Source: Candidatus Hodarchaeota archaeon
GTDB taxonomy: Archaea > Asgardarchaeota > Heimdallarchaeia > Hodarchaeales > Hodarchaeaceae
Assembly: GCA_029856365.1 (NCBI GenBank)
Contig: JAHQWW010000016.1
Span: 1 to 52,765, forward strand
Reading direction: 5' to 3'
Length of the DNA stretch: 52,765 nt
Shown: one piece after another, positions 28,492-30,436 of the stretch
Numbering within the stretch: the first letter of the stretch is position 1
How the letters are laid out: each line of letters opens with the position of its first letter
Made by a program: the position numbers and the translations under genes
Notes under the pieces: model-generated
Database searches by the model: none
What the model saw: only the letters and a program-made list of their open reading frames with translations
Told to the model about the DNA's origin: nothing

Positions 28492-30207
28492 ATGAAAACA
28501 GCTAATTCTGACGAAGTTACAGCTCCCAAAGATTTTATTCGGAAAATTATTTCAGAAGATGTGGAAAACAATAAAAATAATGGACGTGTCCATACTCGTT
28601 TCCCTCCTGAACCCAATGGTTGGTTACACATTGGTCACGCGAAATCGATTTATCTTAATTTTAGTATCGCAAGTGAATTCAATGGACTATGTAATTTACG
28701 GTTTGATGATACAGATCCTACAAAAGAAAGCATGGAATATGTAGAGGCAATTGAAAAAGATATTCAATGGCTTGGGTTCGATTGGGAAGATAGACTCTAT
28801 TTTGCATCGGATTATTTTGAACAATTATATCAATTTGCTATAGAATTAATTAAAGCTGGAAAAGCTTATGTTTGTGATTTGAGCGTAGAAGAAATTAAAG
28901 CACAAAGGGGGACATCAGATGACCCAGGGATAGAAAGTCCATATCGTAATCGATCAGTGAAAGAAAATCTTGATCTATTTAAGAGGATGCTTAAGGGAGA
29001 GTTTAAAGATGGTTCTCGGGTGTTAAGAGCTAAAATTGACATGACATCTCCTAATATGCTAATGCGCGACCCAATAATGTACCGAATAAAGAGAGAACCG
29101 CATTATAGAACAGGAGATAAATGGATTATATACCCCAGTTATGATTATACACATGGACAATCAGACGCAATCGAAGGAATCACTCATTCACTCTGCTCAT
29201 TAGAATTTGAAACACATAGACCCCTATATAATTGGTATAGAGATCAGCTCCTTTCTTTAAACATGCTTAAACACTGTCCTGAACAAATTGAATTTTCACG
29301 ATTGAACTTAACATTCACTGTTATGAGTAAACGACGCTTATTGAAATTAGTTGAACGTGAGCAGGTTTCTGGCTGGGATGACCCTCGTATGCCCACACTT
29401 GCAGGTTTACGTAGACGTGGTTTTCCTCCAGTAGCTATCAGAAATTTCTTAACTAAAGTCGGAATATCAAAAAGAGAGAATTACATAGATGTTGGCCTTT
29501 TGGAAGCCTGCATCCGTGAAGAAATGGATAAAAATTGCAATCGTGTAATGGCTGTACTGCGTCCCCTAAAGGTTGTGATTCAGAACTATCCAGAGGATAA
29601 GGTTGAAGAACTGGATGCCCCTAATCATCCTAAAGATCCAAACAAAGGATCACGAAAAATACCATTTTCACAAATATTATACATTGAACGTGATGATTTT
29701 CTTGAAGAGCCCCCAAAGAGATTCTATCGGTTAGCACCCGGGAGAGAGGTTCGACTTCGATATGCATATTATATTAAATGTGTTGATGTAATTAAAGATA
29801 ATAAATCTGGAGAGATAATAGAATTACATGCATTATATGACCCTGAAACCAAAGGAGGATTTGCTCCTAATGGACGAAAAAGAGCTACTCTCCATTGGGT
29901 TTCAGCTGAACAAGCAATCAAAGCAGAAGCACGTTTATATGATAGGCTTTTCATCAAGGAGAATCCTTTGGAAAATGCAGACTTTGAAAAAAATTTGAAT
30001 CCCAAATCTTTAGAGAAGTTATCTTGTTATGTAGAACCGAGTCTTCTGGCCACAAAACCGGGGATGACGTATCAATTCGAACGTTTAGGATACTTTTGTG
30101 TTGATTCAGTGGATACAACACCTGAACAGCTAGTTTTTAATCGCACGATAACTTTACGTGACCCTTGGGCCAAGATTAAGAAAACTCAGAAAGTAAAAAA
30201 GAAATGA
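28492..30207 (+). CDS. glnS: Glutaminyl-tRNA synthetase (bacterial-type GlnRS)
   Basis: DFIRKII...[63 protein letters not shown] and [11 protein letters not shown], colinear with E. coli GlnRS as I recall it. Confidence 0.93.
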
Positions 30208-30279
30208 CAGCCCCGCCCAGAATCGAACTGGGGTTATCGGATTCAGAGTCCGAAGTGATAGCCGCTACACCACGGGGCT
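30208..30279 (-). tRNA. tRNA-Gln(CTG)
   Basis: AGCCCCG/CGGGGCT acceptor stem, TCGGA-CTCTGAA-TCCGA anticodon arm, CCCAG-TTCGATT-CTGGG T arm; G73; CCA not encoded. Confidence 0.95.
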
Positions 30280-30329
30280 TGTTCTGAATTTTTATTTTTA
30301 CCATTTGAGTAAGAAAGAGAAGAAAGAAG

Positions 30330-30436
30330 CAGCCCCGCCCGGATTTGAACCGGGGTCGAGAGGGTCAAAGCCTCTTATGCTAGTCCACATTGCCTAATTG
30401 TGGATGATATCCACAACATGTCTACACCACGGGGCT
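30330..30436 (-). tRNA. tRNA-Gln(TTG) with 34-nt D-loop insertion/intron (about 30388-30421)
   Basis: Same acceptor stem, AGAGG-CTTTGAC-CCTCT anticodon arm, CCCGG-TTCAAAT-CCGGG T arm. Removing 34 nt after G15 gives a normal 73-nt cloverleaf. Confidence 0.88.

Follow-up and report, generated by a model that had tools for sequence, protein, structure and literature searches.

A bacterial-type glutaminyl-tRNA synthetase gene linked to a second tRNA-Gln pair in a Hodarchaeota genome that keeps the GatDE route

The glnS locus

The subject of this analysis is glnS, a gene for a bacterial-type glutaminyl-tRNA synthetase (GlnRS), together with two tRNA-Gln genes that adjoin it in a stretch of 52,765 nucleotides from a Candidatus Hodarchaeota archaeon (contig JAHQWW010000016.1 of assembly GCA_029856365.1, our contig C142). 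This whole stretch is referred to as the window. It belongs to a metagenome-assembled genome (MAG; G000 in our numbering) of 4.24 Mb and 35% G+C that is 84% complete with 4% contamination. Positions of all features are collected in Table 1. As an earlier reading of this DNA (hereafter the original prediction) had stated, the two tRNA genes are convergent with glnS and there is no gap between the synthetase gene and the first of them. The complement of the discriminator base G73 of tRNA-Gln(CUG) lies at 30208, directly after the TGA stop codon of glnS at 30205-30207, and tRNA-Gln(UUG) comes next. Direct reading of the sequence of both tRNAs likewise bears out A1-U72, G73 and A37, and adds G2-C71, C3-G70 and G10. 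The anticodon loops are CUCUGAA (A37, A38) in the CUG isoacceptor and CUUUGAC (A37, C38) in the UUG isoacceptor. In the following, these two glnS-linked genes, and their counterparts in related genomes, are called set B.

The tRNA-Gln(UUG) gene of set B required closer inspection, as default tools miss it because of a 34-nt intron in the D-loop: ARAGORN with default settings did not report the gene, and RF00005 gave a partial match of 29.6 bits in which the D-arm was skipped. The mature sequence is supplied by intron-less orthologues from sister genomes (L005, L006, L007). In the predicted fold of the precursor, the intron forms an internal hairpin of 8-9 bp beside intact acceptor, anticodon and T arms, and a bulge-helix-bulge motif can be drawn only in relaxed form. 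The same intron is present in the closest relative (G074) and absent from most other orthologues.

Table 1. Features of the glnS locus and of the dispersed tRNA-Gln pair (set A) of the same genome. Positions without a contig label refer to the window.
Feature	Position	Strand	Description	Basis
glnS	28492..30207	+	bacterial-type GlnRS, 571 aa	HIGH and VMSKR motifs, both anticodon-binding domains
T-rich run TCATTTCTTTTTT	30195..30207	-	directly 3' of tRNA-Gln(CUG)	antisense of the last glnS Lys codons and stop
tRNA-Gln(CUG), set B	30208..30279	-	72 nt, no intron, no encoded CCA	ARAGORN; RF00005 60.9 bits
Spacer between the two set B tRNA genes	30280..30329	-	A/T-rich, 50 nt	sequence
tRNA-Gln(UUG), set B	30330..30436	-	107-nt precursor, 73-nt mature, no encoded CCA	intron-less orthologues, fold, sequence
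D-loop intron of tRNA-Gln(UUG), set B	30388..30421	-	34 nt, after about G15	sequence and fold
tRNA-Gln(CUG), set A	C32:26889-26996		intron at 37/38, A73 and G37	
tRNA-Gln(UUG), set A	C81:42520-42623		T-loop intron, A73 and G37	

The glnS product

The product of glnS scores 705.9 bits against NCBIfam TIGR00440 (cut-off 425.8, model positions 1-524) and 832 bits against NF011291, and the archaeal model for glutamyl-tRNA synthetase (GluRS) gives 360.8 bits, which is under its cut-off of 401.75. The Pfam families PF00749, PF03950 and PF20974 are each covered end to end. In a comparison with the sequences of solved structures, the GlnRS of P. aeruginosa (684 bits) and E. coli (647 bits) matched over the full length and with the same domain order, and the human and yeast enzymes reached 460 and 415 bits. 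The motifs LHIGHAKS and VMSKR are readable in the alignment to 5BNZ and to 1QRS, the latter being the structure of the D235N variant of E. coli GlnRS. The arginines by which the E. coli enzyme reads the anticodon (R341, R402, R410) are all Arg in the aligned glnS product. glnS thus encodes an intact, full-length GlnRS. Judged by these scores it is bacterial-like and not eukaryote-like, and therefore has nothing direct to say on eukaryotic GlnRS or on the eukaryotic switch to direct charging, to which the original prediction had drawn a parallel.

Two residues deserve separate mention. In E. coli GlnRS, Asp235 reads the 3-70 pair from the minor groove and Leu136 opens the 1-72 pair. The equivalents in the window are Thr241 and Ser142, respectively. 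All 12 distinct archaeal GlnRS carry T, S or V at the Asp235 site, as against D or N in 70/76 bacterial relatives. At the Leu136 site, Ser is found in six of the nine distinct GlnRS of the genus and Leu in 69/76 bacterial relatives. Further substitutions specific to the archaeal clade occur at sites that are conserved in bacteria. The archaeal acceptor stem has C3-G70 at the place of the G3-C70 of E. coli, so the loss of Asp235 suits the tRNA. Asp235 and Leu136 are marks of E. coli-like specificity, not of membership in the GlnRS family. According to PMC9976931, glutamine identity in E. coli rests on the anticodon, the discriminator and the 1-72, 3-70 and 10-25 pairs, and the specificity of GlnRS depends in part on Leu136. 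The original prediction had named G73, a weak 1-72 pair, G2-C71, G10 and A37 as E. coli identity elements. All five are present in the two window tRNAs, but the E. coli set is matched in part only, as the 3-70 pair is C3-G70 (for G3-C70) and A or C stands for U38.

The GlnRS of two other Heimdall families (L088, L089 and L094, in G015, G082 and G016) have 646-651 aa, about 75-80 aa more than the 571 aa of the window.

Two sets of tRNA-Gln in one genome

The two tRNAs beside glnS are not the whole tRNA-Gln complement of the genome, which the original prediction had assumed them to be. An acceptor/T-arm pairing scan, followed by a pattern search, located a second CUG/UUG pair on contigs C32 and C81, so that the genome holds four tRNA-Gln genes, i.e. 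two complete sets. This dispersed pair, which we call set A, has the A73/G37 state expected of archaea. The acceptor stem AGCCCCG/CGGGGCU is identical in both sets in all seven pairs. Native tRNAs have not been converted to a GlnRS type as had been proposed; an extra pair stands beside an unchanged native pair.

To describe the difference between the sets, 25 spliced and aligned genes of each set from the genus were compared. The two sets are told apart, with no exceptions, by three columns and only three. Before A21, the D-loop has C in every set A gene and U in every set B gene. Position 37 is A in 25/25 of set B, and in set A it is G in 20/25 and something other than A in the remaining five. 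Position 73 is A throughout set A and G throughout set B. The non-diagnostic positions vary within both sets, and A1-U72, G2-C71 and G10 are common to both, hence not discriminating. The three set B differences are kept although the GlnRS proteins of the genus have diverged to about 75% identity.

ARAGORN, run with introns allowed, reported a 'tRNA-Pyl (cta)' at C32:26888-26997. This candidate was rejected as a misplaced intron boundary inside the anticodon, since the bulge-helix-bulge register gives CUG and G37, i.e. the set A tRNA-Gln(CUG). Automatic annotation of these genomes may list false amber suppressors of this kind elsewhere. A 3' CCA is encoded by the tRNA-Gln genes of most other Asgard families sampled (L221-L240, L134-L164), and by neither set of the window's genus.

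The indirect route is present

The genes of the indirect route, in which Glu-charged tRNA-Gln is amidated by GatDE, were found on other contigs: gatD-gatE on C91 and a single GluRS gene on C178 (C178:6457-8145). The assembly shows an in-frame TAA in gatD (C91:18797-18799), which would make it a pseudogene. This was rejected, as AAA (Lys) is what the contigs of four public runs show without exception, including two runs that were not flagged as possible sources of this DNA; the nearest relative has GAA, and all other gatD of the genus are intact. An assembly error or a rare variant is the probable cause of the TAA. A loss of the indirect route in the window's genome is thereby rejected. Two pattern scans of this 84% complete MAG did not find its tRNA-Glu.

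Among relatives, gatE is found in 80/83 genomes of the class and gatD in 19/21 relatives in the genus. The near-universal presence of gatE argues for stable coexistence of two routes and not for a completed switch. The original prediction had seen in this locus a snapshot of the change from indirect to direct charging; in the window's genome, however, the indirect route has not been replaced.

Distribution in Asgard archaea

glnS was found above the family cut-off in 41/399 Asgard genomes, all of them in the window's class and distributed over three families, with 12/22 genomes positive in the window's genus, 21/31 in the second family and 10/12 in the third. Each of the 12 glnS-positive genomes of the genus carries the set B pair, which lies beside glnS in 11 of them and 117 kb off in G065, a closed or single-contig assembly. 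A thirteenth genome with the pair (G073) has it at a contig edge. The glnS-negative genomes of the genus hold set A-type (A73/G37) genes only, with both isoacceptors present in G070 (94% complete). Because the arrangement recurs in 11/12 glnS-positive genomes, including the closed chromosome CP070695.1 (G067), it is neither a chance nor a binning artefact.

Gene order around glnS varies between genomes. In G060, an unrelated gene, and not the module, comes after the orthologue of the downstream neighbour apgM, and the peptidase of G070 has different genes beside it. A check for the empty site in these two genomes gave no clean one; the pattern fits absence of the module at that locus.

As background, 36 tRNA-Gln genes from glnS-less Asgard genomes were sampled (16, 2 and 2 from three families, 10 from a sister family and 6 from the genus). 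G73 occurs five times and A37 three times among them, and the two together never. The original prediction had named an equal frequency of G73/A37 in relatives without glnS as the result that would count against it, and this is not what was observed. Its statement that A73/G37 is the archaeal norm also agrees with the native pair and with almost all tRNA-Gln sampled from glnS-less Asgard genomes. Outside the glnS-linked genes, the combination G73 plus A37 turned up in a single gene, from a MAG that belongs to a glnS-bearing family but in which no glnS was detected.

In the other two families that have glnS, the gene is followed on the same strand, at about 100-1300 nt, by a tRNA-Gln(UUG) that has A37 and A73 and encodes CCA (7 genes in 7 genomes); the unlinked tRNA-Gln copies that were sampled, from one of the two families, carry G37. 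A37 is therefore a mark shared by the glnS-linked tRNAs of all three families, and G73 is particular to the window's genus.

Origin of the enzyme

The closest glnS loci are in Asgard MAGs (labelled Heimdall-, Hermod- and Promethearchaeota) with 75-90% protein identity, including the closed chromosome CP070695.1. The next matches are all bacterial, at 61-67%. A quick tree of archaeal GlnRS with 76 bacteria, a sample free of eukaryotic sequences, was rooted on the genome's own GluRS. The archaeal GlnRS fell in two groups, one for the window's genus and one for the other two glnS-bearing families, both within a basal polytomy with the bacteria. This polytomy is compatible with a single origin and fixes neither donor nor direction of transfer. 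The gene was probably acquired by horizontal transfer, whose direction (into the archaea) and timing are presumed.

Interpretation and alternative explanations

Taken together, we consider it reasonably probable that a GlnRS of outside origin works on a tRNA pair of its own, derived from the native one, beside a retained GluRS/GatDE route, i.e. that two routes coexist and no switch has been completed. In detail, a bacterial-type GlnRS would have been gained, probably by horizontal transfer, with a dedicated tandem pair of CUG and UUG tRNA-Gln. Set B would consist of native paralogues changed at three positions: A73 to G73, G37 to A37, and C to U in the D-loop before A21. As proposed from these sequences, GlnRS would charge set B directly with glutamine. 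G73 is the universal discriminator of bacterial tRNA-Gln, and would here act as a bacterial-type discriminator for GlnRS. In the anticodon loop, A37 is the state recognized by E. coli GlnRS, and it would in addition avoid the methyl group expected on G37 (m1G37). The weak A1-U72 pair could be opened by GlnRS like U1-A72 in E. coli. The enzyme, for its part, may have ceased to read the 3-70 pair, with Thr for Asp235, and most GlnRS of the genus may have dispensed with the Leu136 wedge. Set A (A73, G37) would still be served by the single GluRS and GatDE, giving two routes to Gln-tRNA in one cell. GatDE reportedly recognizes tRNA-Gln by its D-loop and A1:U72 (PMC9499178); set B keeps A1-U72 but has U for C before A21 in the D-loop.

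The main rival is a shared pool, in which all four tRNA-Gln would be used by both routes, set B would raise the supply, and its differences would be tolerated or mildly tuning. We regard this as rather unlikely, but a number of observations favour it and weigh against separate sets. In four glnS-less genomes of the sister family, and once in a further family, G73 is combined with G37; G73 can therefore coexist with the indirect route and is not necessarily an obstacle to GluRS or GatDE; A37 alone is also found in glnS-less Asgard genomes, and on this sequence evidence each of the two by itself is compatible with that route. The glnS-linked tRNAs of the two other families keep A73, and hence G73 is not obligatory for use by an archaeal GlnRS. 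Three of the four bacterial tRNA-Gln compared, all from beside closely related glnS, have G37, and hence A37 is not a universal requirement of this GlnRS family. Both sets keep G2-C71, G10 and the GatDE determinant A1-U72, and set B could enter the indirect route if GluRS were to charge it. Moreover, the known double routes, to Asn-tRNA in Thermus/Deinococcus and to Cys-tRNA in methanogens, use one shared tRNA. The counts themselves also call for care: set B traces to one duplication, making the 25 versus 25 contrast a single event kept by selection; glnS and the pair are physically linked, so that an incomplete MAG lacking both does not count as independent evidence; and at least two 'glnS-negative' MAGs (G062, G068) probably just miss the contig. 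What tells against a shared pool is that three positions hold without exception while others vary freely, that two of them belong to the textbook elements on the GlnRS side and the third is a base of the D-loop read by GatDE, and that the set B pair is confined to glnS genomes and nearly always adjoins the gene.

It is improbable that glnS instead came with a neighbouring bacterial tRNA-Gln whose acceptor stem was later made archaeal-like. Such neighbours do exist: 8/76 bacterial glnS loci have a tRNA-Gln(CUG) within 3 kb (L010, L023, L066 and five others), in three of them convergent directly after glnS as in the window, and the body (positions 8-65) of the set B CUG tRNA is 74% identical to one such bacterial tRNA versus 72-73% to the native pair. 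Over the whole molecule, however, set B shares 75-81% identity with archaeal tRNA-Gln, against 54-64% with the bacterial tRNA-Gln beside related glnS. All seven acceptor pairs including A1-U72 are those of the native pair, no CCA is encoded, set B genes of the genus bear archaeal-type introns at several positions, and the UUG member is without a bacterial counterpart in the bacterial loci sampled. Owing to this archaeal identity, the shared acceptor pairs and the introns, set B most likely consists of paralogues of the native archaeal tRNA-Gln. The archaeal type of the glnS-adjacent tRNAs had been recognized in the original prediction, and is reflected in the window by the native acceptor stem and one archaeal-type intron. 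Even less credible, and in our estimate very nearly negligible, is that the glnS contig is bacterial contamination or that the enzyme is not used in translation. The incompleteness and contamination values of the MAG and the 61-67% identity to bacterial GlnRS could raise this suspicion, but the same contig holds archaeal tRNA genes with an archaeal intron, the arrangement is found in 12 genomes of the genus, two of which (G067, G065) are closed or single-contig assemblies, the Asgard genomes with glnS are all of one class, and the catalytic and anticodon-binding features of the enzyme are intact.

A sister subclade and a possible takeover

The reading of coexisting routes can be extended to a subclade of sister genomes (G058, G061, G063, G064, probably also G062 and G068), which have the set B pair and a single A73 gene derived from tRNA-Gln. 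These A73 genes (L097, L100, L101, L103, L104 and L112, in G058, G061-G064 and G068) have an intron at 37/38; the 5' exon reads UUCUAU in all six, and the introns are divergent. On this exon, the canonical bulge-helix-bulge register gives a CUA (amber) anticodon with U37. BLAST found no ordinary A73/G37 tRNA-Gln, i.e. no set A gene, in the five genomes G058 and G061-G064 (G068 was not searched). A genome-wide recoding of UAG was considered and rejected, as in-frame TAG occurs 4 times, TAA 3 times and TGA 2 times in 53,426 aligned codons (400 kb, three genomes with the CUA gene). The CUA gene may have a local role in the subclade. GatE also departs from the rest of the genus in G057, G058, G061-G064 and G068: it matches its model from about position 3 to 436-577 of 622, with 333-352 bits versus about 550 elsewhere, the non-matching part being the C-terminal end. 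The gatD scores are normal there. As a separate observation, the third family has two gatE-like genes per genome.

A stepwise takeover of glutamine decoding by the imported GlnRS, with tRNA and enzyme co-adapting, is a tentative extension of these observations that we would not put forward as the likely course. The starting stage would be the native A73/G37 pair with GatDE only. The next, represented by the window, would have an added, functionally insulated G73/A37/U20 pair and a GlnRS without Asp235 and Leu136. In the following stage, represented by the subclade, the ordinary native pair is not found, the remaining A73 gene carries a conserved CUA, and GatE fails to match about the last quarter of its model. 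If true, this would be a natural, dated example of crossing the tRNA-identity barrier to synthetase transfer, in which the freed tRNA and amidotransferase were put to new use.

Relation to known systems

In the literature searched, mentions of archaeal GlnRS are only passing ones. A preprint notes GlnRS adjoining cox genes in Hodarchaeales and Kariarchaeaceae (10.1101/2024.07.04.601786), and there is one general statement that GlnRS was transferred to Archaea. Reviews up to 2022, on the other hand, state that no archaeon has GlnRS (PMC9499178). The difference between archaeal A73 and bacterial G73 is there invoked as key to this absence, and the idea of Tumbula and Söll is that archaeal tRNA-Gln (A73, A1-U72), having co-evolved with GatDE, is unusable by GlnRS (PMC9499178). 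No description of a second tRNA-Gln set in archaea was found in the literature searched.

The system resembles the E. coli type of GlnRS and tRNA-Gln (PDB 1GTS/1QTQ; P. aeruginosa 5BNZ; TIGR00440) in the full-length homology of the enzyme, its HIGH and VMSKR motifs and three arginines, and set B shares G73, a weak 1-72 pair, G2-C71, G10, the YUG anticodon and A37 with E. coli tRNA-Gln. Unlike that system, the host is archaeal, Asp235 and Leu136 are replaced by Thr and Ser in the enzyme, and a second tRNA-Gln set and GatDE coexist with it; set B itself has A1-U72 and not U1-A72, C3-G70 and not G3-C70, and A38 or C38 and not U38, besides an intron and no encoded CCA. With the archaeal indirect route (non-discriminating GluRS plus GatDE), the genome has gatD-gatE, one GluRS and an A1-U72/A73/G37 pair in common. 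It departs from it by the presence of GlnRS and by set B, which differs at 73, at 37 and at the D-loop base in the region read by GatDE.

As cited in PMC9499178, the archaeon HMET1 has two mutually orthogonal PylRS/tRNA-Pyl pairs with G73 versus A73. The likeness lies in two enzyme/tRNA systems for one amino acid in one archaeal genome, told apart in part by the same discriminator contrast; there, however, the enzymes are PylRS paralogues and orthogonality was determined by experiment, whereas here a synthetase stands against two-step transamidation and any orthogonality of the sets is a prediction. Helicobacter pylori, with GluRS1 and GluRS2, and the double Asn and Cys routes likewise have redundant or split routes per cell, and in the former an enzyme is specialised on acceptor-stem features of tRNA-Gln. 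Those systems share one tRNA set or split enzymes, not tRNAs, and we know of no duplicated isoacceptor set tied to an imported enzyme described for any of them.

The locus represents a natural experiment on the tRNA-identity barrier: a GlnRS was acquired and retained alongside a tRNA pair that is changed at 73, at 37 and in the D-loop, and the enzyme is without its own acceptor-stem readers. Four tRNAs occurring in nature, three candidate switches of identity and two substitutions in the enzyme make the barrier idea testable. If the two sets are insulated, they would form a natural pair of separate glutamine systems, of possible interest for genetic-code engineering. In addition, the double route has proved stable throughout a class that belongs to the archaea nearest to eukaryotes.

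Neighbouring features and unusual tRNA-like genes

The other neighbours of glnS in the window are a peptidase S9, a phosphoglycerate mutase (apgM) and a radical SAM protein; the cox neighbourhood published for GlnRS of Hodarchaeales and Kariarchaeaceae is not in the window. The zero gap between glnS and tRNA-Gln(CUG) is peculiar to the window's genome, with about 35-62 nt in relatives. Judging from its composition, the T-rich run that follows this tRNA could act as an oligo-T terminator of its transcript, and the set B pair may be made as one transcript or two. A search with a stretch of this DNA listed no RNA data set containing it.

In one genus of the second family, 72-nt tRNA-like genes were detected (L134-L140, in G017, G018, G022, G025, G027, G034 and G035). 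In six of these genomes they lie 0.3-4 kb downstream of glnS; in G022, glnS was not found. They have A1-U72, A73, encoded CCA, a six-bp anticodon stem and a six-base loop, UUU[A/C/U]GG, in which the middle base varies among close relatives. With such loops, these genes are unlikely to be ordinary decoders. Lastly, at one locus (L158, G013:C187:1840-2600) glnS is followed by three tRNA genes, namely a tRNA-Gln(UUG) with A37, a 71-nt gene with an A1·A72 mismatch and a five-base loop that ARAGORN labels 'tRNA-Stop (tta)', and a CUG tRNA with G37 and G1·U72 as its first pair.

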